A DNA stretch of 32,157 nt, taken from contig JAKSPR010000001.1 in NCBI GenBank assembly GCA_024404655.1, forward strand, positions 1 through 32,157. The letters run 5' to 3'. Every line of letters begins with the position of its first letter. Within the stretch, counting starts at the first letter, position 1. The stretch comes from Clostridia bacterium. GTDB taxonomy: Bacteria; Bacillota; Clostridia; Oscillospirales; CAG-272. Positions 9,536 through 27,049 of the stretch are shown here, piece after piece. Made by a program: the position numbers and the translations under genes. The notes beneath the pieces were generated by a model that saw only the letters and a list, made by a program, of their open reading frames with translations, did no database searches and had not been told where the DNA came from.

Positions 9536-9537
9536 TC

Positions 9538-9567
9538 AAAAAAGCGGGGGGCACCCCCTGCTTTTTT
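9538..9567 (+). terminator. Intrinsic terminator after the GH2-TIM barrel operon
   Basis: AAAAAAGCGGGGGGCACCCCCTGCTTTTTTAC: a GC stem followed by a T6 run. Confidence 0.85.
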
Positions 9568-9643
9568 ACGATCTCTGATAGAATTTGCGATGTTTTTTTC
9601 TGAATGTTTGCAGGATTGTTTTCTTTTTTTGCAGTATAGGGTA

Positions 9644-9672
9644 TTTTATGGATCCCGTCGTAATGTTATAAT
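9644..9672 (+). promoter_or_regulatory. Putative promoter of the binding-protein-led operon (extended -10 type)
   Basis: TGTTATAAT extended -10 (hexamer 9667-9672), with a weak -35 TTTTAT (9644-9649) at 17 nt. Confidence 0.35.
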
Positions 9673-9747
9673 TAAGATGCAGGCGGGATGATGCATCCGG
9701 TTATACAGCGACATAGCTATACAGCCTGCGGAAAGGAACAATCCGAT

Positions 9748-11241
9748 ATGAATCATTCTGTAAACCTGAAAACGGCGGCTGTGTCCGTTCTGCTCCTGTC
9801 AGCGATTCTGACAGCCTGCGGCGGGGAGACCGCACAGAATCCCGTGACGACAAACGCACCGGGCGGCACGGCTGCAGCCCCTGCTGTCACAGAGGCAGTG
9901 ACCGAAGAAAATCGTCTTTACCCAGCCTACGAACTTGATCTTGGCGGTTCGGATTTCCACATGTTCTATTTTGATGAGGTCGGTATGTGCGGATGGTCAA
10001 GCGAGATCCCCAACGACCTGTATGCAGCGGAGGAAACCGGTGATATTCTGGCGGATGCGGTTTACCGCCGCAATCTTTCCGTGGAGGAAAAATACAATGT
10101 CAAGCTGACGGCAGAAGCCTGCCCGGACTGGGATATCACCGCGCGTGTGTCAAAATCCGTTTTGTCCGGTGCCGGCAGCTATGATGCGGTGTTCCCGCAC
10201 TGGCAGATCATGCAGCCGCTGATCACGGGGAACTATCTGACCCAGCTGGACAGTTATCTCGACGTTTCCATGCCGTGGTGGGATGCGCGCTCCAAAGAAG
10301 GCTTCTCTGTGGGCGGAAAGACCTTTGCATTGTCGGGAGACCTGACCTTTATGGATAAGTTGACCGACATTGTTCTGTTTTTCAATAAGAAGATGGCGGC
10401 AGACTATGATCTCGGTGATATCTATCAGATGGTCGTTGACCATAAGTGGACTTTTGATAAAATGCTGGAGATCTGCTCGAACCTGTCTGCGGACCTTGAC
10501 AATAACGGCAAGTATGATAAAAACGACCGTTTCGGTTTTGCCGGACAGAACGATGCTTCGTATGAGCTTTTCAACTCCTCCGGTGAGAAGTTCTGCTCCA
10601 TCGGTTCCGACGGTGTTCCGTATCTTTCCAACGACAGCGAGCGCGCCATCGGCGTCATGATGCGGGTATATGAGTTCATGAACGATTCCCGCAGCTTCTT
10701 CAACCGTCAGGCGGCGAACCTCTCAGTTGCGGATGCCATCAATATGTTCAAATCCGATAATGTCTTTATCCTTATGCGCCCGCTGCAGACGGTCATGGAG
10801 CTGCGTTCCATGAATGCGGACTTCGGTATCATCCCCACACCGCTGATGGATGATGCACAGACGGATTATTACACTTCCATTGGCTATACTGTTGCCATTG
10901 CGACCTGTATTCCCTCGGATGCCAAGGATGTCACAGTTTCTGCAGCGATTCTCGACACCATGGCAGCGGAATCCTATTACTCCATGAATGAAGTTTTCTA
11001 TGACATGGTGCTCGGCTCCAAGGTGATCCGGGACGATATTTCCCGGCAGAATCTGGATATTATTTTTGAAAATCATCTTTATGATCCCGGCTGTATATTC
11101 GGCTTCGGCGGCATGGCATCCGAATTCCTGAACAACTATAAGAACCGGACCGACAAGGTGGCATCCACCATTGAAAAATTCAAGCCCAAGGTCGAAAAGG
11201 ATATCGAGAAGTTCATGGATACCCTTGCAAATCTGGAATGA
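9748..11241 (+). CDS. ABC-transporter extracellular solute-binding lipoprotein (large, about 500-aa sugar/oligosaccharide type)
   Basis: Start chosen at MNHSVNLKTAAVSVLLLSAILTAC|GG (lipobox LTAC), with GAAAGGAA 8 nt upstream. Size and composition fit a family-1 binding protein. No permease or ATPase gene is adjacent. Confidence 0.85.
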   Translation: MNHSVNLKTAAVSVLLLSAILTACGGETAQNPVTTNAPGGTAAAPAVTEAVTEENRLYPAYELDLGGSDFHMFYFDEVGMCGWSSEIPNDLYAAEETGDILADAVYRRNLSVEEKYNVKLTAEACPDWDITARVSKSVLSGAGSYDAVFPHWQIMQPLITGNYLTQLDSYLDVSMPWWDARSKEGFSVGGKTFALSGDLTFMDKLTDIVLFFNKKMAADYDLGDIYQMVVDHKWTFDKMLEICSNLSADLDNNGKYDKNDRFGFAGQNDASYELFNSSGEKFCSIGSDGVPYLSNDSERAIGVMMRVYEFMNDSRSFFNRQAANLSVADAINMFKSDNVFILMRPLQTVMELRSMNADFGIIPTPLMDDAQTDYYTSIGYTVAIATCIPSDAKDVTVSAAILDTMAAESYYSMNEVFYDMVLGSKVIRDDISRQNLDIIFENHLYDPGCIFGFGGMASEFLNNYKNRTDKVASTIEKFKPKVEKDIEKFMDTLANLE

Positions 11242-11269
11242 TTCCGGAAAATGAAAGGAAGAAACTAAA

Positions 11270-12019
11270 ATGAGTTATCAGAATAAGACCGTAATAATCA
11301 CAGGCGGCGCATCCGGTATGGGTCTGCTCTCCGGTCAATGTTACGCAAGAGAAGGCGCAAACGTCGTCCTTGTGGATATCAATAAGGAAATGCTGGAGGA
11401 AAAGTGTGCGGAGATTGCAGCATATCCGGCAAATGTGCTGGGTGTGTGCATCGACATCCGCAATTATGATCAGGTGGAGGATGCCTGCCGTCAGGCGGTA
11501 GAAAAATTCGGCTCCATTGATCTGCTCATCAACAGCGCAGGCGGCGCAGAGACACGGATCTGCAAGGTCGGCGGAGAATTCCAGGATATTCCGATCGACG
11601 TCTATGATTTCGGTATTGACGTCAATCTGAAAGGTGCGATCTATTTTGATCATGCTGTCATGAAGCAGATGGCAAAACAGAAGAGCGGCGTCATCATTCA
11701 TCTCGGATCCATCACGGGACAAGAAGGATGTTCGGTCAACATCGCCTACAGTGCTTCTAAATCCGCGCTGATGAACGGTGTAACGAAATCCATTGCACTG
11801 GCAGGTGCGAAGTACAATATACGCACGGTCTGTGTCGCACCCGGTCCGGTCCTTACCCGTCCCGGTATGGCAGGTATGAAGACCCTCTGCGGCAGAGCGG
11901 CAGAGCCCCAGGAGATCGTCGATATGATCATGTATGCGGCATCCGATAAGTGCGCGTTCTTGAATGGAACCACTATATTAATGGATGGCGGACGCAATGT
12001 CATGTTCAATAAAACCTGA
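11270..12019 (+). CDS. SDR family oxidoreductase
   Basis: 249 aa. 'TGGASGMG' dinucleotide motif, 'NSAGG', catalytic 'YSASK'. RBS AAAGGAAG. Confidence 0.9.
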   Translation: MSYQNKTVIITGGASGMGLLSGQCYAREGANVVLVDINKEMLEEKCAEIAAYPANVLGVCIDIRNYDQVEDACRQAVEKFGSIDLLINSAGGAETRICKVGGEFQDIPIDVYDFGIDVNLKGAIYFDHAVMKQMAKQKSGVIIHLGSITGQEGCSVNIAYSASKSALMNGVTKSIALAGAKYNIRTVCVAPGPVLTRPGMAGMKTLCGRAAEPQEIVDMIMYAASDKCAFLNGTTILMDGGRNVMFNKT

Positions 12020-12037
12020 TAATATGAGGATGGATTT

Positions 12038-12769
12038 ATGAAACGCTTTGAGGGGAAATGCGTCATGATCACCGGTGCCTCGGTGGGCATCGGGCAGGCA
12101 TGCGCAGAGCAGTTTGCAAAAGACGGTGCCAATTTGGTTCTTGCTGATGTTGATCTGGAAAAACTGGAAATTCTTGCAAAGACACTGCAGGACACCTGTC
12201 AGGTCAGGGTTTTATTTGCATTATGTGATGTCTCCAATGATGCGGCTGTCCGGAAACTTGTCAGTGATGCCTGTGAAGCATTCGGACGGATCGACATCCT
12301 TGTCAACAACGCCGGAATCTGGCGGCGGTTCATGCCCTTTACTGAGACGACGAGTGAGATGTGGAAAAAATACATTGATGTCAACATTCTCGGCACCATG
12401 TACTGTACGCATGCGGTGCTGCCGGGCATGCTTTCTGCCGGATGGGGCCGGGTTATCAATGTCGGTTCTGTTGCCGGAGTTTATGGCAATGCCAATATGG
12501 TGGACTATTCCACGACAAAGGGTGCGGTTATCGCCTTTACGAAAGCTCTGGCAAAGGAAGTTTCGCCCAAAGGCGTAACAGTGAACTGCGTCTCCCCGGG
12601 CAGCGTCAGCAACCATCAGGATGAGATCGAGCCCTCGGAGCTGTCTTTCATGGGACGCACCGGAACACATACGGAGAACGCAAACATGATTTGTTTCCTC
12701 GCAAGCGACGAGGCAGCTTATATTTCCGGTCAGAATATTCAGGTTGACGGCTGCAGGAAAAAGATGTGA
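12038..12769 (+). CDS. SDR family oxidoreductase (second paralogue)
   Basis: 243 aa. 'TGASVGIG', 'NNAGI', catalytic 'YSTTK'. RBS GAGGA 7 nt upstream. Confidence 0.9.
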   Translation: MKRFEGKCVMITGASVGIGQACAEQFAKDGANLVLADVDLEKLEILAKTLQDTCQVRVLFALCDVSNDAAVRKLVSDACEAFGRIDILVNNAGIWRRFMPFTETTSEMWKKYIDVNILGTMYCTHAVLPGMLSAGWGRVINVGSVAGVYGNANMVDYSTTKGAVIAFTKALAKEVSPKGVTVNCVSPGSVSNHQDEIEPSELSFMGRTGTHTENANMICFLASDEAAYISGQNIQVDGCRKKM

Positions 12770-12803
12770 CAGGAGCAGAAAAAGAAAGGTACGGTTATCC
12801 GAT

Positions 12804-13580
12804 ATGATCTATAAACCAACATTTTTGCATCAGAACCGTCCGCTCAACACCTGCATGATCCAGACGGATCGTGCGGATATCGCGCGGAATCTGAGCCGGG
12901 ATGCGGCTTTTGACGGCTGTGACGCTTACGGCTTCCAGATGGAATGCTTTGATAAGAACAGCCGAACGGAGGATGTGATCCGAGGCATTTTTTCCTTCAT
13001 GGACGGGAAACCCATTTACGTCACCAATTACCGTTATCAGCAGAACGCAGGAATGACGGACGATGAACTGTCCGAGGGATTATTTTTCCTCCGCCGCTGC
13101 GGGGCAACCCTGCTTGATGTGATGGGAGATTATTATTGTCCCACGCCGGGTGAACTCACCATGGATCCGGATGCCATTGCAAAACAGAAGGATCTGATCG
13201 CGCGGATCCATGACGCGGGCGGAGAGGTCCTCATGTCCTCCCATGTGCTGAAATACACCCCGGCAGAAGAAGTGCTCCGTATTGCAAAGGAGCATGAAGC
13301 CCGCGGCGCGGATATCGCCAAAATCGTCACGGCAGCAAACACCGAGGAAGAAGAACTGGAAAACCTGCGCATCACCACGCTTCTGCGGCGTGAGCTGAAC
13401 ATCCCGTTTCTGTTCCTCTCAGGCGGCAGTCACTGCCAGCTGCACAGGACCATCGGTCCGATGCTGGGCTGCTGCATGTGGCTGACTGTCCATGAGCAGA
13501 CGAACACGGCTACCAAATCCCAGCCCTCGACCCGTGCCATCCGCGCAATCGCCGATAATTTTTCGTACACACACCCGTGA
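12804..13580 (+). CDS. Type I 3-dehydroquinate dehydratase (AroD)-like protein, outside any shikimate-pathway context
   Basis: 258 aa from the ATG at 12804. It aligns by eye with the C-terminal half of E. coli AroD: 'EVLMSSHVLKYTPAEE' (His-143 region), 'GADIAKIVTAANTEEE' (Schiff-base Lys-170 region) and 'FLFLSGGSHCQLHRTIGPMLG' (the MSMxxxGxxSR region). Confidence 0.72.
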   Translation: MIYKPTFLHQNRPLNTCMIQTDRADIARNLSRDAAFDGCDAYGFQMECFDKNSRTEDVIRGIFSFMDGKPIYVTNYRYQQNAGMTDDELSEGLFFLRRCGATLLDVMGDYYCPTPGELTMDPDAIAKQKDLIARIHDAGGEVLMSSHVLKYTPAEEVLRIAKEHEARGADIAKIVTAANTEEEELENLRITTLLRRELNIPFLFLSGGSHCQLHRTIGPMLGCCMWLTVHEQTNTATKSQPSTRAIRAIADNFSYTHP

Positions 13581-13629
13581 CTATGCCAATATACATATCT
13601 GTGACCTATGCAAAAAGGAGAAACCTCAA

Positions 13630-14619
13630 ATGAAAGCCATTCTTGTTAATCCCGATAAAAGCCTTGTCTGGACTGACGTCCCGACCCCTGTTCCCGCCGA
13701 TGATGAAGTCCTTGTGGAGATTTGCTGCGCAGCGCTGAACCGTGCAGACCTCATGCAGCGCGACGGCGATTATCCGCCCCCTCCCGGCTGTCCCGAATGG
13801 ATGGGACTGGAAATCTCCGGTTATGTCCGTGAACTGGGCAAAACCGCGCAGAAGATGAGTGGCTGGAAGATCGGAGATGCGGTCTGTGCATTGCTCGGTG
13901 GCGGCGGATATGCCCAGTATGTCACAGTCAAATATGACATGCTGATGCCCGTCCCCAAGGGCCGCACGATGGAAGAAGCAGCGGCAATCCCCGAAGCTTA
14001 CTGTACCTCTTATCTGAATCTGTTTATCGAGGGCGGAGCGAAAGCGGGAGATACCCTGCTCATGCAGGCAGGTGCATCGGGACTGGCTTCTGTTGTCATC
14101 CCCATGGCAAAAGCGTTTGGACTTCGTGTCATCACAACTGTCATCAGCGATGAAATGGCGGAGCGCATCAAGCCTCTCGGAGCGGATATCATTGTCAATA
14201 CTGCAAAGGAAGCGCTTTCCGATGTACTTCGGGCGCAGCTGGAAGCGGGTACTCCTGTGGATATTGCTATTGACTGTCTCGGCGGAGCATCCATGGGTTC
14301 GTGTCTGCCTTATCTTGCCCGCGGCGCGCGGTGGATCATGATCGCAGCGCTGACCGGACAGATCACGGAAATTGATCTGAAAAACATCTATGTCCGCAAT
14401 GTCCGCATCATTGGTTCGACCCTGCGTTCCCGCACACCGGAGTTCAAGGCAGAATTGCTCCGGAAACTGGTGGCAGAGGTCTTCCCGAAGATGGAACAGG
14501 GGCTCATCCCGCCTTTCATTTACCGCGTCCTTCCCATTACGGAAGCGGAAACCGCTCATGCGATTATGGCAGAAGGAAAACACAACGGCAAGATTGTCAT
14601 GACTGTGCCGCATGATTGA
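13630..14619 (+). CDS. Zinc-independent MDR, NAD(P)H:quinone/enone oxidoreductase (PIG3/Qor type)
   Basis: 329 aa from the ATG at 13630, with GGAG 9 nt upstream. 'ALNRADLMQRDGDYPPPPG' signature and 'AGASGLAS' nucleotide loop. Confidence 0.87.
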   Translation: MKAILVNPDKSLVWTDVPTPVPADDEVLVEICCAALNRADLMQRDGDYPPPPGCPEWMGLEISGYVRELGKTAQKMSGWKIGDAVCALLGGGGYAQYVTVKYDMLMPVPKGRTMEEAAAIPEAYCTSYLNLFIEGGAKAGDTLLMQAGASGLASVVIPMAKAFGLRVITTVISDEMAERIKPLGADIIVNTAKEALSDVLRAQLEAGTPVDIAIDCLGGASMGSCLPYLARGARWIMIAALTGQITEIDLKNIYVRNVRIIGSTLRSRTPEFKAELLRKLVAEVFPKMEQGLIPPFIYRVLPITEAETAHAIMAEGKHNGKIVMTVPHD

Positions 14620-14628
14620 ATAACGACG

Positions 14629-14668
14629 CAGCGGACCAGCTCTGAAAGCTGGTCCGCTGTTTGTTTCA
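14629..14668. terminator. Intrinsic terminator between convergent MDR and TIM-barrel genes
   Basis: Perfect 13-bp stem CAGCGGACCAGCT (14629-14641) / AGCTGGTCCGCTG (14647-14659), followed by TTTGTTTC on +. The T-tract on the - strand is weaker. Confidence 0.8.
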
Positions 14669-14676
14669 CTTGATTC

Positions 14677-15534
14677 TTATGCAAGGCGTTCCAGAATCCG
14701 GATCGACTGGCGCACGCCCTCATCAAAGGGTTCCGGATGGCAGAGTTCCAGCGCATAGACACCGTCATAGCCGGCTTCACGCAGAACTTCCATACAGCCG
14801 GTGATGTTGACCGTGCCGTCTCCGGTGAGCACATCCCGCAGCCACATCTGATTCTTTCCGTTCTCCATGGGCAGCCAGTAGATACCGGGCTGTTCCGGAG
14901 ATTTCTTGCGCAGATAGTCCTTGACGTGGACGTGCCGGATCTCTTTGGCATAAGCACGGAAGAAATCCTCCGGCTCAGTGCCGACGAACAGGGAGTTGCC
15001 CATATCGCCGCAGACGCCGACATTCGGACAGACGCGCCTGACTTCATAATAGAACTTTCCGAAGTTCTCAACACCGTTTGCATACATGCCCTGATCTTCA
15101 TAGAGGCAAGTCAGTCCCAGCGGGGCGGACGCACGGGCAATGCGGACAGCAGCTTCTGCCGCGGTTTCCAGCGCTTCCTCAGCATTTGGAATATCCGCTC
15201 TCGGACGGAGACCGGGGATCAGCGTGTGATGGAGGAACGGGGAACCGATGGCAGCAGCCAGCTCCGCATGGAGGAGCAGGTTTTTCTCGGATTCCGGGTC
15301 ATGGTACAGATTGACGCCTACCGAATAGCAGGCAAGGGAGATACCGCGGGCAGACAGAGCGGCTCCGGCCTGTTTTGCAGTGTCGGTATCGCGGAGCAGC
15401 GGTGTTTTGCCCGGTCCGGCAGTATCCAGTACCTCCCCATAGGGAAGACCGAGTGACAGCATCTTATCGGCGGTTTTATCTGTGCCTGCTTCCAGAAGCA
15501 ACTCGATGAAGTTTGTATACATGGCAAATTTCAT
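14677..15534 (-). CDS. Xylose-isomerase-like TIM-barrel protein (second, divergent copy)
   Basis: 285 aa. Blocks 'CLYEDQG', 'CGDMGN', 'HVHVKD' and 'ALEL'. GAGG 9 nt upstream of the ATG at 15534. Confidence 0.82.
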   Translation of the reverse strand: MKFAMYTNFIELLLEAGTDKTADKMLSLGLPYGEVLDTAGPGKTPLLRDTDTAKQAGAALSARGISLACYSVGVNLYHDPESEKNLLLHAELAAAIGSPFLHHTLIPGLRPRADIPNAEEALETAAEAAVRIARASAPLGLTCLYEDQGMYANGVENFGKFYYEVRRVCPNVGVCGDMGNSLFVGTEPEDFFRAYAKEIRHVHVKDYLRKKSPEQPGIYWLPMENGKNQMWLRDVLTGDGTVNITGCMEVLREAGYDGVYALELCHPEPFDEGVRQSIRILERLA

Positions 15535-15561
15535 GGTTTGGGTCCTCGTTTCGTCAATGGA

Positions 15562-15581
15562 ATTTTTCTGATATCATTATC
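15562..15581 (-). promoter_or_regulatory. Candidate shared operator / -10 region upstream of the second TIM-barrel gene
   Basis: The - strand reads GATAATGATATCAGAAAAAT. 14 of 15 central positions match the GH78 promoter region (26011-26030), including the palindrome TGATATCA (15569-15576). Confidence 0.35.
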
Positions 15582-15650
15582 TTCCGGGAACGTGACAGCC
15601 CGGTGAAAAACAGATATATATTCACAAATCATTTACAATATCGGAAGAAC

Positions 15651-15680
15651 TTGACAAAACCGCATGAACTGCGATATAAT
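15651..15680 (+). promoter_or_regulatory. Consensus sigma-A promoter of the four-gene operon
   Basis: TTGACA (15651-15656), 18-nt spacer, TATAAT (15675-15680), 31 nt upstream of the ATG at 15712. Confidence 0.6.
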
Positions 15681-15711
15681 AGGCACAGGAAAACATAGGA
15701 GGACACCCGAA

Positions 15712-16386
15712 ATGAAACTGATTTTTGTCCGGCACGGTCACCCGGATTACGTGACCGATACGCTGACGGAAAAGGGACATCCGCAGGCCGAAGCCGCTGC
15801 TCATCGTCTGGAACGGGAGCATATTACAAAGATTTATTCTTCTTCCTGCGGCCGGGCGGTCCAGACGGCGGAGCATACAGCAAAGCTTCTGGGGCTACCC
15901 GTGACGCAGCTTGAATTTATGCGGGAGATCCGCTGGGGCGTGCCCGGCGGGGATAATGCCGTCTACAATCCATGGAATGCCGCGCTTCGCATGGCCGGAG
16001 AGGGTATTGACCTGTTCCATCATGACCCCAAGGACGATACGATCTGGAAAGGTACCTACCTTGAAGAATCCGTGAAAAAGGTCAGGGAAGGGTTTGATGC
16101 CCTGCTTGCGGAACTCGGATATCAGAGGGAGGGCGGATGCTATCGCTGTGTGAAGCAGAATGAAGATGTGATTGCCATTTTCTCTCACGGCGGATCAAGC
16201 TCTGCTGCCATGTCACACCTGCTGGGCGTTGAAATGCTCGGTTTTGCTGCGGTATACTGTATTGATTATACGTCGATCAGCATTTTTGAATTCCGTATGG
16301 GAGAGGGCGAGATCGGACTGCCCTCACTGGTTTTATTCAACGATCACGCGCATCTCGAATCCGCGCTTCCCAATGCGTTCTTTTAA
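15712..16386 (+). CDS. Histidine phosphatase family protein (phosphoglycerate-mutase-like)
   Basis: 224 aa from the ATG at 15712, with AGGAGGA upstream. Catalytic 'FVRHGH' (RHG motif) and a distal 'FSHGG' His. Confidence 0.87.
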   Translation: MKLIFVRHGHPDYVTDTLTEKGHPQAEAAAHRLEREHITKIYSSSCGRAVQTAEHTAKLLGLPVTQLEFMREIRWGVPGGDNAVYNPWNAALRMAGEGIDLFHHDPKDDTIWKGTYLEESVKKVREGFDALLAELGYQREGGCYRCVKQNEDVIAIFSHGGSSSAAMSHLLGVEMLGFAAVYCIDYTSISIFEFRMGEGEIGLPSLVLFNDHAHLESALPNAFF

Positions 16387-16421
16387 TAACAAGTAACATA
16401 GACTGTCAGGAGGATATTCCG

Positions 16422-17453
16422 ATGGAAAATCAGAAATTCATGCAGCCGATGGAGCATCTCCACATGCTGCTCGATACCGAAGTCCCGTCCATGCGCTGGG
16501 ACGGCGTCACCCCGATTGCAGATTGGCAGAAATGCGCAAGAGAAAAGCTGGCGGCGCTTGTAGGTCTTGATGAAATCGAGCCTTACAGAACCGATGCGCG
16601 TCTGGAAATCGAATTTGACCGCATCTGCGAAGAGGAAGGCTTCCGCGAGATCCGTTTCCGCTTTTATTCCGAAGAAAACGTCTCTGTTCCATGTCATCTG
16701 GTTCAGCCGCTTGGCGCAGAGAAGCCGTTGCCGGTGGTGATCTGTCTGCAGGGACATTCCAAAGGAATGCATATTTCCCTCGGCAGACCGATCTATCCGG
16801 GAGACGAGGAAACCTGTCACGGCGGAGACCGTGATTTCTGCGTTCGTGCAGTCAAAGAGGGCGTCTGCGCCATCGCAATGGAGCAGCGCTGTTTCGGCGA
16901 ATCCGGTGGTACCGAAAAGGGACCCGACTGCAGACAGGCTGCCATGCGTGCGATCCTGCTCGGACGGACACTGATCGGTGAGCGTGTATGGGATATCATG
17001 CGCCTGATCGACGTCATTGAACAGAACTTCACTGAAATCTGTGATAAGGATAAGATTATGTGCCTCGGCAATTCCGGCGGCGGTACGGCAACGGTTTATG
17101 CGTCTGCTCTGGAGACCCGCATCAGATTCGCCGTTCCGTCCTGCGCAGTATGCCGTTTCGCGGATTCCATCGGTGCGATGATGCACTGTGAGTGCAACTT
17201 TGTTCCGGGAATTGCAAAGGTCTTTGATATGGGAGAATTGTGCGGTCTGATCGCGCCCCGCAAGCTGGTGGTGGTCTCCGGTCACAACGATCCGATCTTC
17301 CCGCTGGATGGGGCGAAGGCGTGTGTCGCAGAAGCAAAACGCATTTATACTGCATTAGGTGCGCCCGACAACATTGCCCATGTGGTCGGCGATGGCGCAC
17401 ACCGGTTCTATGCTGGTGACGCATGGCCGGTCATTCATGCCATGGCGGACTGA
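16422..17453 (+). CDS. Alpha/beta hydrolase (acetyl-xylan-esterase / dienelactone-hydrolase-like carbohydrate esterase)
   Basis: 343 aa. Nucleophile elbow 'LGNSGGG', and C-terminal 'GHNDPIFP' and 'GDGAHRF' supplying the Asp/His candidates. RBS CAGGAGGA. Confidence 0.82.
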   Translation: MENQKFMQPMEHLHMLLDTEVPSMRWDGVTPIADWQKCAREKLAALVGLDEIEPYRTDARLEIEFDRICEEEGFREIRFRFYSEENVSVPCHLVQPLGAEKPLPVVICLQGHSKGMHISLGRPIYPGDEETCHGGDRDFCVRAVKEGVCAIAMEQRCFGESGGTEKGPDCRQAAMRAILLGRTLIGERVWDIMRLIDVIEQNFTEICDKDKIMCLGNSGGGTATVYASALETRIRFAVPSCAVCRFADSIGAMMHCECNFVPGIAKVFDMGELCGLIAPRKLVVVSGHNDPIFPLDGAKACVAEAKRIYTALGAPDNIAHVVGDGAHRFYAGDAWPVIHAMAD

Positions 17454-17547
17454 AAAAGAAATCTTACAGGGCTGCCTGGTATTACAGCCGCAGCCCATAT
17501 ACTTTCAATATGAAAATGATGAACGTCAGGAGGGAGAAATAGACACC

Positions 17548-18507
17548 ATGAAGCACAATTTCGATTTTGACACGATTCTTGCCCACATTCGCAGCGATGC
17601 ACGGAAAGCGCTGATTCTGGATACGGATACCTATAACGAAGTGGACGATCAGTTTGCCGTCGCCTATGCTGCGCTGGCGGAGGATATCGACCTGCGCGCC
17701 CTGACGGCTGCACCATTTTATAATGATCGGTCTTCCTCACCTGAGGATGGTATGGAAAAGAGCTATGAAGAACTGCTTCGTGTGCGCAGCCTGCTTGGGG
17801 ATGACTGTCGGACACCGATCTGCCGCGGCTCCCGCGGATATCTCACTTCAATGACAGTACCGCAGAAAAGTGAGGCAGCGGACACCATTGTCAGACTGGC
17901 AAAAGAATCGGAGGACATTTTATACGTTGCCTGTATCGGATGTTTCACCAATGTGGCTTCTGCTCTGCTCCTTGACCCGTCGATTACGGAAAAGATCATT
18001 GTGCTTCTTGTGGGAGGCAATGATTTCCGTCATGAGAGCGCAAATGAATTCAATCTGGAGCAGGACCGCCTTGCTGCCCGAGTGATCTTTGAGTCCGGCG
18101 TACCGGTGATCCTTCTGCCCGCCTATGACGGGACCTGTGAACTGCGAACGACCACAGGTGAGGTCGCCTATTTCCTCGGGGACGGAAAAGCCGGAGCAAT
18201 CGGAGAGTATCTTGTTTCCCTTTTTGAAACCAACGAGGGGAAAGCAGTCGGGGAAGACGGGGTCTGCTGCTCTCATCAGCGTGTGATCTGGGATATTGCG
18301 GCGGTAGCTTTTCTGCGGGGACCGGACCGGTTCTGCCATGTATTCTCTGCAGATAGCCGTACAGTGGATGCACGCGGTTACTGGACTCCACTGGACAACG
18401 GCCGCCGGATGCTCTCAACGGAACATTTCAACCGCAATGAAATTTTCTCCGATCTGTTTACGGTTCTGGAAAAGAACTGTGCGCAGAAAAGCAGAATAAA
18501 CCGATAA
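17548..18507 (+). CDS. Nucleoside hydrolase (IUNH) family-like protein with a non-canonical Asp cluster
   Basis: 319 aa from the ATG at 17548. The N-terminal 'LILDTDTYNEVDDQFAVAYA' resembles the DxDxxxDD fingerprint but has five rather than three residues before the DD. Confidence 0.78.
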   Translation: MKHNFDFDTILAHIRSDARKALILDTDTYNEVDDQFAVAYAALAEDIDLRALTAAPFYNDRSSSPEDGMEKSYEELLRVRSLLGDDCRTPICRGSRGYLTSMTVPQKSEAADTIVRLAKESEDILYVACIGCFTNVASALLLDPSITEKIIVLLVGGNDFRHESANEFNLEQDRLAARVIFESGVPVILLPAYDGTCELRTTTGEVAYFLGDGKAGAIGEYLVSLFETNEGKAVGEDGVCCSHQRVIWDIAAVAFLRGPDRFCHVFSADSRTVDARGYWTPLDNGRRMLSTEHFNRNEIFSDLFTVLEKNCAQKSRINR

Positions 18508-18526
18508 GAAACGGGAGGACGATATC

Positions 18527-20332
18527 ATGATTCAGATTCAGGCTGACAGAACAGCCATTACCGTATCTGATGGCAGCCGCATTCTGCGTACTGCGCCGTG
18601 GGACTGCCGCATCATACTCCCGGATGGCAGGGTATCACGTTTTTCCGACGCCGTCTGCGCATCCGAGCCGCTGAAAAACGGAATCGGTGCCGGCGTAAAA
18701 CAACGCTGGAGCGGGTTTCCGGAAATTCCTGCGCTGGAGCTGGAATGCCGTATTTATGCGGAAAATGCGACAGGGGACATTATTTTTGAACTCATCCCCA
18801 TACACGATGCGGAAATCGAAGAAATTCTCTGGCCCGCACCGTTTGAAAATCCGAAGGCGGACGCCTATACCGTGCTTCCTCTGATGCAGGGTGCACTTGT
18901 GCCGAACTATACCAAGCAGACTTTCCCGGATGCGTGGGATATCATCCCCGGCTATACGGAGTACCGGCACAGTTGCTCCCGCTCCATGTATATGTCATTC
19001 TTCGGACAGTATGATGGAGAAGGCGGCTCGATGACGATTCTGGAAACCCGCTATGACGCGGCGATGACCGTGCAGAGCGGAGAAGGACAACCTGTTCTCT
19101 GTGCTGCCCGCTGGAGAGAATCGCTGGGAATGATCCGTTATCCCCGCCGTCTGCGGGTCAAGTGCTTTGCGCCTGGTGCGGATTATAACGACATGGCGCA
19201 GGCATACCGTGCTTATGTGGATGCACAGGGAGAACTGATTACCCTGAAACAGAAAGCCGCGAAGAATCCGAAGGTCAAAGAGCTGATCGGAAAACCGATC
19301 GTCCATACGCATATCTGGTATCATACCCAGCCGGACAGCGACGCTTATGACAAAGACCACCCGGAGAAGAACGACCGCAGACAGAGCTTTGATGCTGTCG
19401 GAGAAAAACTCCGCCGCTTAAAGGATCATGGACTTATGGATGCCGTTGTTCATCTGGACGGATGGGGACGGCGCGGATATGACAATCAGCACCCGGATTA
19501 TCTGCCCCCGGCGGAGGATCTCGGCGGATGGGACGGCATGAAGCGTCTTGCCAATACCTGCCATAAGCTGGGCTATTTCTTCGGTACCCACGACCAGTAC
19601 CGCGATTATTTCTATGACGCAGATACCTTTGATGAATCCTATGCCGTACATAACCGGGACGGCGGGGTGTCCTCCCATGCGATCTGGATGGGCGGAAAGC
19701 AGACATTCCTCTGTGCGACACAGGCACCCTATTATGTCAGACGGAATTTCGGTGAAATCAAAGCCCACGACATTCATCTTGACAATACGTATCTTGACGT
19801 TTTCTCCTGTGTGGAACTGGACGAGTGTTATTCTCCCGAACATCCCATGACACGGGAGCAGTGCGCGGAGTACCGGATGAAATGTTTTGATCTGGTTTCA
19901 TCGGACGGAATCCTTGTGCAGTCCGAGGAAGGCATTGACTGGGCGTTTCCGGGTCTGATCTTTGTCCATCATGCGCCCTTTGCGCCGAGCAACTGTCCCG
20001 GTCCCGAAAAATCCGCAGGTATTCCGATTCCGCTTTTGGAAATGGTCTATCACGATTGTCTCATTACCCCCTATACGCCCTCCGGAGACAATCTCCTGTT
20101 CGGCTGGCTGACAGGCGGTGCAACCTATATCGACGAAGATGCGGATGCAGAGACCATTGCAGAATGTAATGCCCGCACGGCATGGCAGAAGCAGGTTCAG
20201 ATGCGGAAGATTATTCATCATGAATTGATCGACGGCAATCCCTGCCGTCAGAAAGTCAGCTTCGAGGGCGGATTTACCGCAGAAATTGACCTTGATCATC
20301 AGTGCTGGACGGTATCCGGACCGAGAAAATAA
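18527..20332 (+). CDS. Uncharacterised 601-aa cytoplasmic protein, possibly a glycoside-hydrolase-like (beta/alpha)8 enzyme
   Basis: Strong RBS GGGAGGA 7 nt upstream and no signal peptide. I recognise no family signature. The central 'VVHLDGWGRRGYDNQHPDYLPP...GGWDGMKRL...GYFFGTHDQYRDY' resembles the barrel-strand pattern of TIM-barrel glycosidases. Confidence 0.75.
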   Translation: MIQIQADRTAITVSDGSRILRTAPWDCRIILPDGRVSRFSDAVCASEPLKNGIGAGVKQRWSGFPEIPALELECRIYAENATGDIIFELIPIHDAEIEEILWPAPFENPKADAYTVLPLMQGALVPNYTKQTFPDAWDIIPGYTEYRHSCSRSMYMSFFGQYDGEGGSMTILETRYDAAMTVQSGEGQPVLCAARWRESLGMIRYPRRLRVKCFAPGADYNDMAQAYRAYVDAQGELITLKQKAAKNPKVKELIGKPIVHTHIWYHTQPDSDAYDKDHPEKNDRRQSFDAVGEKLRRLKDHGLMDAVVHLDGWGRRGYDNQHPDYLPPAEDLGGWDGMKRLANTCHKLGYFFGTHDQYRDYFYDADTFDESYAVHNRDGGVSSHAIWMGGKQTFLCATQAPYYVRRNFGEIKAHDIHLDNTYLDVFSCVELDECYSPEHPMTREQCAEYRMKCFDLVSSDGILVQSEEGIDWAFPGLIFVHHAPFAPSNCPGPEKSAGIPIPLLEMVYHDCLITPYTPSGDNLLFGWLTGGATYIDEDADAETIAECNARTAWQKQVQMRKIIHHELIDGNPCRQKVSFEGGFTAEIDLDHQCWTVSGPRK

Positions 20333-20342
20333 ACAGAATACA

Positions 20343-20385
20343 AAAAGATGCTGCTGTGAATCGGGTCACAGCAGCATTTCTGTTT
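20343..20385. terminator. Bidirectional intrinsic terminator
   Basis: Perfect 12-bp stem ATGCTGCTGTGA (20348-20359) / TCACAGCAGCAT (20366-20377). TTCTGTTT follows on + and CTTTTTGTATTC on -. Confidence 0.82.
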
Positions 20386-20392
20386 GGAGATA

Positions 20393-21466
20393 TTATTTCA
20401 AACCAAGCTCTTCCAGCGCACAGGGATAGACCTCCCCGCGGCCCTGATTCGGGGCATTCAGGACATGCTCGGCAAAGAAGACGGTGACAGCATGGGTTCT
20501 GTCTATGGCGAGATAGGAATTTGCGGCACCGTCCCAGCCGAAATCAACAGGACTGTCGGGACCTGCTCCGGGTCCGGGGCAGCGGACTCCGAGACCGTAG
20601 CCGTAAACCGGATTGTACCAATAGGATTTGATCTGACTGTCCGTGAGTTTGTTTTCCGCCATCAGGTCCGTGGTTTCCCGGCTTATAAGAATATCTCCTT
20701 TGCGCATGGCTTCAAGAAACAGGATGTAGTCGGAAACGGAGGAAATACATCCCGCGCCGCCGCTCTCATATTCTGTGCCCAGCTTATAGCCCTGAATCTG
20801 TTTGCCACAGTTGACAAAAGATTTATTCTCATGATCGTAGCGGTATTGTTCGGCGAGGGTATCAAGCTCTGTATCGGGCAGAGAAAAGGTAGATTCCTTC
20901 ATGCCGACGGGATCAAAAATATGGCGCTTTACATAGGTTCCGAACCGCTCACCGCTGATGACTTCCACAAGGGCTGCTAAAACGTCATGACAGAGACTGT
21001 AGTTCCAATGTTCACCCGGTTCAAAGCAAAGGGGTTCTTTTGCAAGATAACGCATGGTTTCCCGTGTGGGACAGCGTCCGGCGGTTTCCTCTCTTGCTTT
21101 GCGGAGGGCGGGGGACCAGAGATCATAGGAAAATCCTGCGGTCATCGTGAAAAGATCCCTGATGCGGATGGGATGCTCTGCCCGCCGCACATCATCCCCG
21201 GCACCCACTGTCATATCTCCGAACTCCGGCATATAGTCGGCCAGAGCATCGTCGAGGCGGTAAAGTCCTTTTTCATAAAGCTGCAGAGCGGCAGTACAGG
21301 TGATGGGCTTGGAGCAGGAATAAATATTATAGCGAAAAGGCGCGTTTTCGGCATCTCCGAAACGGCGGCGATAGACGATATCTCCCTGGTATGCGACAGT
21401 ACAGTCACAGCCGGGGACACCGATTCCGATATAGCTTTCCAGAATGGAAGTCAGTTTTTCAAACAT
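20393..21466 (-). CDS. Serine hydrolase, beta-lactamase (class C / esterase EstB-like) family
   Basis: 357 aa from the ATG at 21466, with AGGAG 9 nt upstream. SxxK motif in 'YSCSKPIT' and a 'WNYS' Tyr motif. No signal peptide. Confidence 0.87.
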   Translation of the reverse strand: MFEKLTSILESYIGIGVPGCDCTVAYQGDIVYRRRFGDAENAPFRYNIYSCSKPITCTAALQLYEKGLYRLDDALADYMPEFGDMTVGAGDDVRRAEHPIRIRDLFTMTAGFSYDLWSPALRKAREETAGRCPTRETMRYLAKEPLCFEPGEHWNYSLCHDVLAALVEVISGERFGTYVKRHIFDPVGMKESTFSLPDTELDTLAEQYRYDHENKSFVNCGKQIQGYKLGTEYESGGAGCISSVSDYILFLEAMRKGDILISRETTDLMAENKLTDSQIKSYWYNPVYGYGLGVRCPGPGAGPDSPVDFGWDGAANSYLAIDRTHAVTVFFAEHVLNAPNQGRGEVYPCALEELGLK

Positions 21467-21506
21467 ATCCGATTTCTCCTTTTGGTTAGATAATCCGTAA
21501 TTTATC

Positions 21507-23108
21507 TTAGAAGCCACAGTTGCTCACGAGTGTCTTCCAGTCGGAATTCCAGAAACTCTCCTCATTTGCATAAGGGGAAAGATCCGGACGGACAGTTTCA
21601 TTTTCAAGTTCGGCAACGGGGGTTCCCATGGTGAGATATTCGTTCAGTTTTCTTGCAAGATAAGCAAACCGCACGCGCTGGGCACCAAGGAAGATCTGGT
21701 CGATTTCCAATCCGTAAGGCATATTGTCGCAAAGCCATGTATCCTCATAGACAGGAATGTAGTCGTCAAGTGCCTGCTGCAAAGCGGAAAGCTGTCCGGC
21801 ACAGTCGGCAAGAGCTACTGTATCGTGCTCTTTATACGCCCTTCGCAGTCTGACACCGAGGGTGGATTTGAGTGACAGGACAATCGCGAATTTCTCCGCG
21901 CAGCGGAACAGATGTGAATAAGCGCCGCCCGCACCGGAATCAGCGATGCTTCTGTAATGTTCCGATAGTTTCTGATATGCTTCCGGTGTCTTTGGATTCA
22001 GCATCAGATCCCAGCCGCCGTTTGCGATGTCGGTCAGAAAGATCCAGAAAGAACGGTTTCCGTGCCAATCCGCGGGGCGGTTGTCAAAAATGTCATCGAG
22101 ATTGTCAAGGGACAGAAGCGCATCATAGTCGCCGCCTGTCAGGTGAGAAAAGCGTTCCTTGTCCGGTGTGCCGACGCCGTTCCATGTGCCGCGGGCATAT
22201 TCTGCGGCGGCATAAAGCGCGGGGAGCACGGAATAATTATTGACCCAAGCACCGTTATCCGACCACAGCGTCACCATGAAGGAATCCAGTCCTTTTTCCG
22301 CGGCAATCTTCATCTGCGGGATCAGACGGGCTAAACTGAATGTGTTCAGAGATGTCATGGAGCCGCACTTGAAGGCAGTTCCCGCATAAGCGACTTTGTC
22401 GGCATAGTGCTTCATATCGTCCAGCTTTTTTTGCAGGGCGATTTCGTCCTTTTCCCAATAGTCCCAGTACCAGACTGTGACATCGTCCGGAAGCGCCGCA
22501 CGGACGTCACGGGATGTCACATGGGTATTGTCGGTCTCGACCAGCATATCATGCCAGATTTCACAGGTATAGCCGAAACTTTCTGCAATTTTCAGAACCT
22601 GTTTCAGATGGCGGAGCAGAATTTCCTTTTTGTCGGCAGGGCCGTGTTTTTTCAGATAATTTCCGGTACCCAGACCCCAGCATTCATCGAAACCGATGTG
22701 GATGCGCCGGGAAGACAGTCCCTCGGAAATAGCGGAAAACATGTGTTTAATCAGCGTGTAGACCCGTTCATCATCTGCTAAGAGGATGTTTTTCGTATCC
22801 ATCATATCCCGGTAGGACTCATGCCGCTCCAGAAAGTCAAGATGGCCGAGGGTCTGGATATTGGCGATCAATTCGATGCCGCAGGAGTGGGCGTGCGCGT
22901 CCATGTCCTTGAGTTCCTCTGTCGTATATCCGCCCCGTTTGTAATTGAAATAGGGTTCTTCCTTGATCTTATAAGCATCGGTAAGTCCGAGATACAGTTC
23001 CGTATATCCCATTCCGGAAAGCATTGTCAGAAACCGCTTGACGGTCTCCGGTGTCGGTGTTGACCCGGTGGAACATTCGATCAGCGCGGATAGATGTTTG
23101 AATTTCAT
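21507..23108 (-). CDS. Glycoside hydrolase family 20 (beta-N-acetylhexosaminidase-like)
   Basis: 533 aa from the ATG at 23108. The TIM barrel starts with 'LSGMGYTELYLGLTDAY', and the catalytic pair lies in 'RIHIGFDECWGLG' (HxGxDE). No signal peptide. Confidence 0.83.
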   Translation of the reverse strand: MKFKHLSALIECSTGSTPTPETVKRFLTMLSGMGYTELYLGLTDAYKIKEEPYFNYKRGGYTTEELKDMDAHAHSCGIELIANIQTLGHLDFLERHESYRDMMDTKNILLADDERVYTLIKHMFSAISEGLSSRRIHIGFDECWGLGTGNYLKKHGPADKKEILLRHLKQVLKIAESFGYTCEIWHDMLVETDNTHVTSRDVRAALPDDVTVWYWDYWEKDEIALQKKLDDMKHYADKVAYAGTAFKCGSMTSLNTFSLARLIPQMKIAAEKGLDSFMVTLWSDNGAWVNNYSVLPALYAAAEYARGTWNGVGTPDKERFSHLTGGDYDALLSLDNLDDIFDNRPADWHGNRSFWIFLTDIANGGWDLMLNPKTPEAYQKLSEHYRSIADSGAGGAYSHLFRCAEKFAIVLSLKSTLGVRLRRAYKEHDTVALADCAGQLSALQQALDDYIPVYEDTWLCDNMPYGLEIDQIFLGAQRVRFAYLARKLNEYLTMGTPVAELENETVRPDLSPYANEESFWNSDWKTLVSNCGF

Positions 23109-23163
23109 GTCTGATCTTTCCTCTCTGTGAAACAGCATATTTTCACATTTTTCTGATGAAAAC

Positions 23164-23192
23164 AGTATAGCACACGCCGGAGGGCGTGTCAA
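23164..23192 (-). promoter_or_regulatory. Near-consensus sigma-A promoter for GH20 and the serine hydrolase
   Basis: Read on the - strand: TTGACA (23192-23187), 17-nt spacer, TGCTATACT extended -10 (hexamer 23169-23164). Confidence 0.55.
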
Positions 23193-23199
23193 GGGAAAC

Positions 23200-23240
23200 G
23201 TGAAAACAGCAGCCGCAGGTTCTGAGGCCTGCGGCTGTGT
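23200..23240 (-). terminator. Intrinsic terminator of the GH78 gene
   Basis: Stem AGCCGCAGG (23211-23219) / CCTGCGGCT (23228-23236). On the - strand it is followed by TGTTTTCAC. Confidence 0.7.
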
Positions 23241-23264
23241 ATTGCATTTCGGGGGATAAATGTA

Positions 23265-25955
23265 TTACCAGACAAATTCATAATCACCGGAACCGAGGGT
23301 GATCATCTCGCCGGTCGTGGGAACGGTAAGGACTGCAGTTGCATTGACCGGAACGGTGCAGGTATAATGAATCTTTTCGCCTTCATACGCCCATGCGCTC
23401 TTAATGAGACCGCAGACGGAATTGTAGCAGGCGGAGAGATGTCCGATGCGTGCATCCGGGGTCGGAGCCAGCGTGATTGTCTGATAACCGACAGTCTGCG
23501 GACGGACACCTGCAGCGTAGCCAAACAGCCACTCGGAGACACAGCCGTATGCGTAGTGGTTGAAGGAGTTCATGCCCACATCGCCGAAGCCGTCCTTGAT
23601 GGAGTAGGAGTTCCAGCGCTCCCAGATGGTGGTGGCACCTGCCTTGACACTGTAAAGCCAGGAGGGCATTGCATCCTGCAGAAGCAGCGTATAAGCGATA
23701 TCGTTGAGACCGCAGTCAGAGAGGGTCGGCAGCAGGATGCTGGTACCGAGGAAGCCTGTCTGCAGGCGGTTGCCGCTGTTTGCAATATTGCTTGCCAGCT
23801 GTGCTTTGACGGCTTCCACGGACTTTTCATCCGGCAGAAGTCCGAGCTTCAGAGCAAAGAGTGCTGCACACTGCTGGGACAGCTTAACGGTGCCGTCCTC
23901 ATTTACGTAAGTTTTCTCAAAATAAGCCTTCTGCTCCTCATAAACGGCTTGATAGCGGACTGCATCGTCACACTTTCCAAGTGCTTTTGCCATGTCAACC
24001 ATCAGCGCAGCATCCCATGCTTTATAGCAGACGCCGAGCATGGTCTGCAGCTCCTGATCGTTGGGCTCAAAGGACAGCCAGTCACCCCAGATATTGACGG
24101 TACCTGCCGTGCCGCGGTGACGCATGAAGCAGTTCATATAGAGCTTCATGGACGCATAGTTCTCTTTGAGAATGGTATCGTCGCCGGACATTCTCCAGAC
24201 ATAATAGGGAACAAGAATACCTGCATCGGACCAGCCGGTGCCGCCCAGTTCATTGCCGTAGCGTCCGCGGGGCGCAACACCGGGATAGGAGCCGTCAAGA
24301 CCCTGAGAATCCCGGAGGTCCTGGGTCCATTTCTCGTGGAAAGACTGGGTAGAGGTGGAATAATACTGTGCTGTGGTGGTATAAACCTGCGTATCTGCCG
24401 TCCAGCCGTAACGCTCGTCACGCTGCGGACAGTCGGTGGAGATGGAGAGGTAGTTGGAGATCATACCCCAGCGGGAGTTGGAGATCAGCTGATTGACATA
24501 AGTGTCTCCGGTTTCTACCATACCGCTGTCGTAGTTGATGCTCGTCACGACCTCACCGACGATGGAGGAGAAGTGAACATCCGCATCTGCGGTGATGGAG
24601 AGATAACGGAAGCCGTAGAAGGTATAAATCGGGCGGAATGCTTCTTCCTTGTCGGAACCGATGATATAGTTGGTTGCAGCCTGTGCACCGCGGAGATTTT
24701 CGATATAGACAGCACCTTCAGGACCGTCATTGCCGCGGGAGCGCTTGCCGTTGCCGTCGCAGAGCATTTCGCTGTGACGGATGGTAATCTTCGTGCCGGC
24801 TTTGCCCGTGACGTGGAAATATTCCCGTCCGGCGGCGTTCTGACCGAAGTCGATGACAGCGGTCTCACCTGCATGCAGGATGAAATCGGTGGAATCGTAG
24901 TTTACCACATTGTCGATCTTACCGTATTCCTTAACGGCGCGGTCTTCGCTGTCCACAGCACCGACGGCACCCTTATAGGTGTAAACCTTAACTGCTTTGC
25001 GGGTCAGGTCATAACGGCAGATGACGGAATCACCGACCATGGACTGGACGATACCTTCAAAACCGTGGGAAACGACTGCGTTTGCCCATGCGGAGTCGTC
25101 AAAACCGGGCAGCATATAAGCGCAGGAAATACGTGCGTCGTAGGTCTCGCCGCCGTAGACGGATGCGTTTACAACGGGATGCTCTGTGGAAACTTTCCAT
25201 GCGGAGCTTGTTGCGATGACCTCAGAAGTTCCGTCTTCATATTCCAGAACGAGGGCGGCCTTGAAGATGGCAAGCTCACCTGTGTGATCTGCGATCACGT
25301 CAGACCACCAGCCGGAGGTGACGGTGGCGGTGATGCAGTTGGCACCTGCTTTTACCAGCTCCGTGACGTTATAGCTGTGATAGAATTTGCGCTTGAGAAT
25401 CTCGGTGAAGCCGGGCTTCATCTCATATTCGACTTTATTGCCGTCAGCATCATAATTGAAGGGTCTGACACCGTTGATATATGCTTCGTACATACCGGCA
25501 CCGACGGTGAACAGCTTTGCTGCTTTGACCGTCTTTGCCGGGGTAAACTCATGACGGAATGCAGGAACGGATTCCGGGCTGACGCCGGGGACGCGGGGCA
25601 GGGAGAGGAAATCGGCATTGTCTAAAAGTCCGGAGTCCATAACGCCGGTGGAGAAACAGATCGTCTTTTCTGCGGTTTTGCCGTCGGAGAGGGTGGTTTT
25701 CAGGGTGACGGTATAGTCTTTTGCTGGTTTCAGTGCTTCTGCAGCATAGGTGACGTGTTTCTTATCAGTGGTAACAATGCCGCTGTCCCATACGGTTTTT
25801 CCGCAGGCACAGACAACTTTGATCTGATAGGATGTCTGCACAAGGTTCTTGTCTGCGGCCTCTGCTGCATAATTCCAGGAAAACCGGGGGTTCTGGGTAT
25901 CAATACCCACCGGAATGGTGAGCTTTTCTGCTTTCAGGCTTGCAAGTACTGCCAT
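23265..25955 (-). CDS. Alpha-L-rhamnosidase, glycoside hydrolase family 78
   Basis: 896 aa from the ATG at 25955, with AGGAG 8 nt upstream. 'GIDTQNPRFSW' N-terminus and six-hairpin catalytic block 'STDCPQRDERYGWTADTQ'. No signal peptide. Confidence 0.93.
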   Translation of the reverse strand: MAVLASLKAEKLTIPVGIDTQNPRFSWNYAAEAADKNLVQTSYQIKVVCACGKTVWDSGIVTTDKKHVTYAAEALKPAKDYTVTLKTTLSDGKTAEKTICFSTGVMDSGLLDNADFLSLPRVPGVSPESVPAFRHEFTPAKTVKAAKLFTVGAGMYEAYINGVRPFNYDADGNKVEYEMKPGFTEILKRKFYHSYNVTELVKAGANCITATVTSGWWSDVIADHTGELAIFKAALVLEYEDGTSEVIATSSAWKVSTEHPVVNASVYGGETYDARISCAYMLPGFDDSAWANAVVSHGFEGIVQSMVGDSVICRYDLTRKAVKVYTYKGAVGAVDSEDRAVKEYGKIDNVVNYDSTDFILHAGETAVIDFGQNAAGREYFHVTGKAGTKITIRHSEMLCDGNGKRSRGNDGPEGAVYIENLRGAQAATNYIIGSDKEEAFRPIYTFYGFRYLSITADADVHFSSIVGEVVTSINYDSGMVETGDTYVNQLISNSRWGMISNYLSISTDCPQRDERYGWTADTQVYTTTAQYYSTSTQSFHEKWTQDLRDSQGLDGSYPGVAPRGRYGNELGGTGWSDAGILVPYYVWRMSGDDTILKENYASMKLYMNCFMRHRGTAGTVNIWGDWLSFEPNDQELQTMLGVCYKAWDAALMVDMAKALGKCDDAVRYQAVYEEQKAYFEKTYVNEDGTVKLSQQCAALFALKLGLLPDEKSVEAVKAQLASNIANSGNRLQTGFLGTSILLPTLSDCGLNDIAYTLLLQDAMPSWLYSVKAGATTIWERWNSYSIKDGFGDVGMNSFNHYAYGCVSEWLFGYAAGVRPQTVGYQTITLAPTPDARIGHLSACYNSVCGLIKSAWAYEGEKIHYTCTVPVNATAVLTVPTTGEMITLGSGDYEFVW

Positions 25956-25988
25956 GATTGTATCTCCTTTTTCGGTTCGTAGCATTTA

Positions 25989-26878: not shown

Positions 26879-27049
26879 CGCGCGCCGCGGCGCGGTGGTT
26901 AGGCCGCCGAACTGGACATTTGGGCATCAGCCCATTTGCGGTAACTGAACGGCGGCATTCCAAACGGGTTCGATGAATAGGCACGGATCTGATTGTAATA
27001 GAAAAAATATACCGAAAAATAATCGTCTTAACCTGTTCTGACGACACCG

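Follow-up and report, generated by a model that had tools for sequence, protein, structure and literature searches.

NagBb, the α-N-acetylgalactosaminidase of Bifidobacterium bifidum, is a member of glycoside hydrolase (GH) family GH129 that lacks a signal peptide and presumably works in the cytosol, on imported N-acetylgalactosamine (GalNAc)-Ser/Thr (PMC7232152); Asp435 is catalytic (PMC5698469) and Trp398 serves as a stacking platform for the sugar (PMC8106489). A GH129-like 3,6-anhydro-D-galactosidase known as DagB (ZGAL_3152, PDB 5OPQ) does not possess the second NagBb catalytic residue (PMC5698469). Among the esterases, the rhamnogalacturonan II (RG-II) pectin methylesterase BT1017 has 3NUZ as its closest structural neighbour (PMC7939467), a structure described as outside the CAZy catalogue. 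Finally, nucleoside hydrolases (NHs) are sorted by the residue preceding their last Ca-binding Asp, which is a His in group I and a Trp in group II (PMC8910321). Here, we analyzed a unit of four genes, named g1 to g4, whose products recall these enzymes together with a histidine phosphatase. The unit lies in a stretch of 32,157 nucleotides of an uncultured Clostridia bacterium (assembly GCA_024404655.1, contig JAKSPR010000001.1, positions 1 to 32,157), hereafter the window. With a confidence slightly better than even, we consider this unit a bundle of cytoplasmic scavenging hydrolases, specific to its lineage and probably co-transcribed, and not a dedicated conserved pathway. All four proteins belong to known families, and it is their arrangement that is idiosyncratic.

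The four genes are all on the + strand: g1 (15712-16386, 224 aa) encodes a histidine phosphatase (His_Phos_1), g2 (16422-17453, 343 aa) an alpha/beta hydrolase (Pfam Abhydrolase_7) resembling serine carbohydrate esterases, g3 (17548-18507, 319 aa) a divergent protein of the nucleoside/riboside hydrolase fold (IU_nuc_hydro) and g4 (18527-20332, 601 aa) a GH129 glycoside hydrolase of the NagBb type (Pfam DUF5696). They are separated by 35 nt (g1-g2), 94 nt (g2-g3) and 19 nt (g3-g4). Upstream of g1, a sigma-70-type promoter on the + strand (15651-15680) combines TTGACA (15651-15656), an 18-nt spacer and TATAAT (15675-15680), with 12/12 matches, and this exact combination is the sole match on either strand of the window, where 0.01 would be expected from 100 shuffles. 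The initial annotation of the stretch, made from the sequence alone, had placed the promoter, the genes and the spacers accurately. It had also described strong ribosome-binding sites (RBSs) throughout, which is right for g1 (AGGAGG), g2 (GGAGG) and g4 (GGGAGG), each 8 nt 5' of the ATG, but less so for g3, where GGAGGG lies 13 nt from the start, a less ideal spacing. The GC content is uniform along the unit (0.51-0.54). With about 25 nt, the predicted 5' untranslated region could not accommodate a riboswitch, and a scan of positions 14500-21000 against Rfam at E<=1 detected no family in the leader or the gaps, with only chance-level eukaryotic matches. None of the four proteins (0/4) has a signal-peptide-like N-terminus, so that the cytoplasmic location proposed earlier is reasonable.

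The genes are followed by a terminal hairpin with a perfect stem of 12-13 bp (20348-20377, extending to 20347-20378), present on both strands between convergent genes. Its stability was not equalled by any of 200 shuffles (z = -5.5 on the + strand and -6.4 on the - strand). The motif scan called it on the - strand only, where the T-run is better (CTTTTTGT), and the + strand tail 3' of the hairpin is UUCUGUUUGG. Since it sits between g4 (+) and the gene at 20393-21517 (-), the hairpin is a shared, bidirectional element and a probable bidirectional intrinsic terminator; the 12-bp hairpin first described at this place is real and highly significant, and the convergent operon shares it. Taken together, the arrangement of the sequence makes a single operon with co-transcription of the four genes most likely, in which a strong, probably constitutive sigma-70 promoter would give one mRNA ending at the hairpin shared with the convergent operon. 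Separate transcription units, g1-g2 and g3-g4 or other subsets, split by the 94-nt gap or by an internal promoter, would be consistent with a 10/12 promoter-like site found by the motif scan within g1 (16229-16258), with the presence of a GC hairpin in the 94-nt gap and with the suboptimal RBS spacing of g3. However, neither the g2-g3 nor the g3-g4 gap yielded a promoter-like site in the same scan, which called no terminator-like site in any intergenic gap of the unit. In addition, the gap hairpin, a 7-bp GC stem on the + strand (17469-17475 / 17490-17496), has no U-tract on its 3' side, and the gap folds within the range of chance (z = -1.6, with 13/200 shuffles equally stable). We therefore regard separate units as distinctly unlikely. 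On the z-score and the missing U-tract, we also reject an attenuator or terminator at this hairpin; the stem seen in the initial annotation exists, and the modulation of distal expression suggested for it is without statistical support.

The comparison with the known systems is closest for g4. NagBb (PDB 5WZN) was matched by phmmer with an E-value of 2.9e-123, between g4 residues 40-597 and NagBb residues 50-629, and a profile of the g4 family matched 5WZN over its full length (E 2.3e-251, 839 bits). D435, E478 and W398 of NagBb correspond to D424 (YLDVF), E467 (SEE) and W387 of g4, which are invariant in 34 homologues, and the residues mutated in entry 5WZQ are all kept in g4 (H260, H309, D311 and H355). 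Glu478 is said to have been named as a catalytic residue of NagBb by Sato et al. in 2017. By this homology, g4 is a full-length GH129 glycosidase of the NagBb type; the product had first been presented as a 601-aa unknown and probable glycosidase, and only the second half of that description holds. Like NagBb, g4 has no signal peptide and has the same catalytic residues and Trp platform. Identity to relatives at this distance is about 40%, and the GalNAc specificity of g4 is a prediction. Unlike for g4, no NH, histidine phosphatase or esterase partners are described for NagBb. As a retaining exo-glycosidase, g4 would take an alpha-linked GalNAc-like sugar off small imported glycosides. The family is widespread beyond mucin niches, in Planctomycetota, Verrucomicrobiota and Chloroflexia, and other alpha-linked sugars are therefore possible. 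DagB has the domain layout of g4 and is distant by profile (E 2.5e-36); a 3,6-anhydrogalactosidase of the DagB type was ruled out for g4, given 129 bits versus 839 for NagBb and the presence of both NagBb catalytic residues. A literature search on DUF5696 found no paper.

The g2 protein matches Pfam Abhydrolase_7 over residues 17-293 with 33.3 bits (cut-off 21), and its matches to Pfam GCE_fung (52 residues) and AXE1 are short. The residues of its nucleophile elbow, G216-N-S218-G-G-G, are invariant when 30-33 homologues are aligned, and S218-D290-H327 is the probable catalytic triad. For the AlphaFold2 (AF2) model of g2, with a predicted local distance difference test score (pLDDT) of 93.9, the top Foldseek matches were the Bacteroides proteins BF1801 (3NUZ) and BVU_4111 (3G8Y), at template modelling (TM) scores of 0.75-0.84, followed by CE15 members (TM 0.54-0.71) and BT1017 (6GOC, TM 0.70). 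The elbow GxSxGG of BT1017 is common to g2 (PMC7939467), without a match at the sequence level (none at E<=0.01), whereas 3NUZ matches g2 by sequence too, nearly over the full length (E 2.8e-5). As judged from sequence and model, g2 is a member of the uncharacterised BF1801/BVU_4111-type family of esterases and would act through Ser-Asp-His; BF1801 and BVU_4111 show the best structural likeness to g2, and no biochemical function is known for either. PDB entries of CE15 gave E-values from 2.5e-5 to 5.5e-3 in partial alignments. The nucleophile motif of CE15 is GCSRxG, and g2 was ruled out as a member because it has GNSGGG instead, its similarity is partial and its TM scores are lower than those with 3NUZ and 3G8Y. 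The characterised families structurally nearest to g2, CE15 and CE19, hydrolyse uronic-acid esters. Beyond the triad, the g2 family has an invariant set of His and Cys residues (H112, H117, C170, C241, H255, C256 and C258). This set could be a metal site, recalling the Zn site reported beside the oxyanion hole of BT1017.

Concerning g3, the protein scored 72.1 bits against PF01156 (IU_nuc_hydro, cut-off 34.2, E 8e-20), and the top PDB matches of its AF2 model (pLDDT 93) were all nucleoside/riboside hydrolases (TM 0.65-0.73). The enzyme classes initially given to g1 (phosphatase), g2 (alpha/beta hydrolase) and g3 (nucleoside-hydrolase-like) are right. The fingerprint of g3, DTDTYNEVDD (D25 to D34), follows DxDxxxxxDD and is 2 residues longer than the canonical DxDxxxDD, which was found neither in g3 nor in its 41 aligned relatives; the pattern D-T-D-x-x-N-E-x-D-D is present in g3 and in 41/41 of these relatives, with invariant Asp residues. 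The motifs of the ribose and Ca sites are kept, as T134-N135, E-F-N169 and W248-D249, of which D249 is invariant. By the criterion of PMC8910321, the Trp-Asp pair is a group II-like (purine-type) signature. Group II (IAG-type) NHs have in common with g3 the NH fold, the Asp cluster, the TN and EFN motifs and the Trp before the last Ca-binding Asp. In contrast to these enzymes and to E. coli RihA/B/C, g3 has the longer fingerprint and is only 16-22% identical to any solved NH structure, none being nearer than the canonical NHs, and its scores against the NCBIfam equivalogs RihA, RihB, RihC and UriH (27.6-48.4 bits) are far under the cut-offs (382-459). The protein would be an N-ribohydrolase of the Ca2+ type, with Trp-Asp as its leaving-group signature. 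Literature searches on DUF1593, PF07632 and nucleoside-hydrolase-like proteins returned only papers on the HopQ1/XopQ effectors, which are not relevant.

The first gene of the unit encodes a member of branch 1 of the histidine phosphatase superfamily. It passes the cut-off of Pfam His_Phos_1 (91 bits versus 21.7, E 1e-25), and the catalytic motif R7-H8-G9 (RHG) and a C-terminal SHGG are read from its translation. Against the named NCBIfam equivalogs, CobC, PspA, GpmB and SixA among them, its scores all stay far under the cut-offs. The subfamily is small, with 45 cluster representatives at E<=1e-30 and a top identity of 52%, and the domain fusions among the relatives of g1 (GNAT-His_Phos and His_Phos-DUF4298) gave no functional hint.

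The conservation of the four-gene set was analyzed in 177 loci totalling 2.16 Mb: 86 anchored on g4 homologues (37-68% identity, 1.42 Mb), 87 on g3 homologues (38-59% identity, 0.67 Mb) and 4 on the closest g2 homologues (67-82% identity). They were searched by tblastn and by phmmer against all six-frame open reading frames (ORFs), and the neighbour censuses are lower bounds, naive ORF picking having sometimes taken shadow ORFs (e.g. downstream in L087). A scan of species-representative genome contigs gave a nearest g4 homologue at 58%. A homologue of g1 was found in none of the 177 loci. No g3 homologue was detected near a g4 homologue in the 86 loci, 77 of which have at least 1.5 kb upstream, nor a g4 homologue near a g3 homologue in the 87 loci, 46 of which have at least 2 kb downstream. 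Esterases of the g2 type occurred with GH129 in 2/86 loci, both as single fusion polypeptides, and near a g3 homologue in 1/87 loci, on the opposite strand. Overall, none of the g1-g2, g2-g3 and g3-g4 junctions recurs in the examined loci, nor in the closest relatives.

These results bear directly on the idea, put forward in the initial annotation, of a stepwise stripping of one decorated glycoconjugate, that is, a single dedicated cytoplasmic pathway in which phosphate, acyl or methyl ester, N-ribosyl and glycosyl groups are removed successively. Such a pathway would account for the close spacing of the genes between a single perfect promoter and a single terminator, and for four genes that all encode hydrolases without a signal peptide; a GH129-esterase fusion found elsewhere and a phosphatase of the HAD family adjoining a 70% homologue of g2 (L175) also go in this direction. 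Against it stand the linkage elsewhere, which is essentially nil (g1 homologue in 0/177 loci, NH-GH129 co-occurrence in 0/173), the absence of all three gene junctions in the closest relatives and the different recurrent partners that each family keeps elsewhere. Moreover, we know of no compound that needs all four activities. A single-substrate pathway is therefore very unlikely. The annotation had proposed co-occurrence of the four families as a check; taken as physical linkage in the 177 loci, the set is not linked elsewhere, which is essentially the outcome that it had itself named as speaking against its proposal.

The neighbours differ from one family to the other. The 68% homologue of g4 (L006) stands between a heparinase-II/III-like gene and a GNAT acetyltransferase gene, one 58% homologue (L001) is alone amid housekeeping genes, and others at 58% (L002-L004) come after ThuA, ADH and a TIM-barrel gene. 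GH129 genes of Lachnospiraceae-type genomes (L007-L086; e.g. L023, L026, L034, L047, L057, L069, L081) show a recurrent flanking arrangement. Across the GH129 loci, an AraC regulator was present upstream in 18/74, mostly divergent, and a GFO/IDH/MocA oxidoreductase downstream in 14/72; the GFO/IDH/MocA oxidoreductase fold is also that of the GH109 alpha-GalNAc-ases. As for g2, its 82% homologue (L174) is followed by a gene for a 1253-aa GH141-like protein, its 70% homologue (L175:3071-4959) by an abutting gene for the HAD-family phosphatase (Hydrolase_3/S6PP-like), and its 67% homologue (L176) is alone, with GH39 and GH28 nearby. Homologues of g3 were found in the orders GH106, NH, ThuA, UxaC (59%, L087), GH5/42-like, NH (57%, L093) and DUF2809, NH, NUDIX (54-56%, L090 and L178), the last being conserved at L090:7580-9952 and L178:5583-7926. 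Among distant NH relatives of g3, 7/121 have ADP-ribosylglycohydrolase neighbours and 5/121 have PfkB kinases. From the NUDIX, ADP-ribosylglycohydrolase and PfkB neighbours, we infer riboside or ADP-ribose-type substrates for the NH subfamily of g3.

The two fusion polypeptides deserve a separate comparison with the window. They are encoded at L005:9394-12327 (977 aa) and L079:91-3108 (1006 aa), and each consists of a GH129 part with a C-terminal Abhydrolase_7/GCE-like esterase domain. L079 is a metagenome-assembled genome of Pirellulales, which places the fusion in Planctomycetota. The N-terminus of the fusion is signal-like, and the ORF in L079 opens with a signal-like hydrophobic segment. 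Since the two proteins are 70% identical over their full length, they derive from one fusion event in one lineage. They raise the hypothesis that g2 and g4 form a true pair, in which the esterase clears an ester blocking GH129 on the same oligosaccharide, g1 and g3 being unrelated passengers. The presence of both genes in one operon of the window would fit this pairing, as would the g2 homologues located beside other exo-acting glycan enzymes (the GH141-like protein of L174, GH39 and GH28 nearby in L176). However, the fusions count as one evolutionary event and look secreted, their esterase domain shares only about 25% identity with g2, a g2-type gene was found in 0/84 of the GH129 loci once the fusions are set aside, and g2 and g4 are non-adjacent in the window. 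A true g2-g4 pair thus appears rather unlikely; its existence would suggest that GH129 enzymes have a substrate blocked by an ester.

We return to the lineage-specific bundle of scavenging hydrolases. The sequences show the features of the locus, the family memberships, the conservation of the catalytic residues and the absence of a conserved linkage; we infer its co-transcription, its substrates and its division into two loose themes. The partners found elsewhere suggest that g2 and g4 act on glycan fragments, and g1 and g3 on phosphorylated ribosides or nucleotides, the latter theme because the NH subfamily has NUDIX, ADP-ribosylglycohydrolase and ribokinase-type genes as neighbours. The g1 phosphatase and g3 could together convert a nucleotide or another phospho-riboside into base and ribose. 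Several observations weigh against this bundle. First of all, genes packed this closely after a single, very strong promoter are equally expected of a functional unit. Next, a g2-type domain was fused to GH129 in one lineage, and at least two of the four proteins may therefore truly cooperate. The HAD phosphatase of L175 is a non-homologous analogue of the g1-g2 pairing of phosphatase and esterase, in a single case. Finally, the nearest relatives with usable flanks have 68% (g4) and 82% (g2) amino acid identity, so that the comparison stops short of the genus level.

A cooperation of the phosphatase, the esterase and GH129 on phosphorylated, esterified polymer fragments bearing alpha-linked N-acetylhexosamine (HexNAc) was also considered, and we judge it highly improbable. 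A speculative example of such a substrate would be teichoic-acid-like or capsular material, with GalNAc alpha-linked to a small polyol phosphate and substituted by esters. If this cooperation were true, the Planctomycetota fusion and the HAD phosphatase of L175 would mark an undescribed esterase-dependent GH129 route.

With the bundle as the preferred reading, little is changed by this locus, which contributes a further small and idiosyncratic operon of hydrolases to the genome of a gut Clostridia bacterium that degrades glycans, its 601-aa protein being now named as GH129. Pfam DUF5696 amounts to the NagBb-type GH129 family, which is widespread in Clostridia and also in environmental phyla for which mucin cannot be the substrate. 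The esterase family of g2 (BF1801 type) and the NH subfamily of g3 (DxDxxxxxDD, Trp-Asp) are both large and without a characterised member, and g3 has no close solved structure.

The rest of the window is dense in glycan catabolism, with GH2, GH20C-like, two GH78 and GH141-like genes, two sugar-type TIM barrels, an orphan solute-binding protein and dehydrogenases. The convergent operon (20393-25985, - strand) encodes a GH78 rhamnosidase (23265-25985, -), a GH20C-like hexosaminidase (21507-23192, -) and a beta-lactamase-fold serine hydrolase (20393-21517, -), the start of the last gene overlapping the end of the GH20 gene by 11 nt, and it ends at the hairpin shared with the four-gene unit. The position of GH20 adjoining GH129 hints at HexNAc-containing substrates. 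On the + strand, a run at 6318-14619 comprises GH2, a xylose-isomerase-like TIM barrel, two SDRs, a type I dehydroquinase-like protein and a Zn-dependent dehydrogenase, as well as a 517-aa solute-binding protein that has no permease genes beside it; it looks like a catabolic cluster of the sugar-acid or cyclitol type. Before this run, a stretch of about 2.2 kb (4112-6317) contains the overlapping long ORFs 4562-5791 (+) and 4814-6034 (-), which have no Pfam match and of which either strand may code, and a GAF-domain ORF (4175-4801, -) adjoins it. Finally, the GC content is 0.41-0.48 at 27001-31000, a region that covers the GH141-like gene (27264-30371, -) and its flanks, compared with 0.50-0.56 elsewhere, and this low-GC stretch may be a more recent acquisition.

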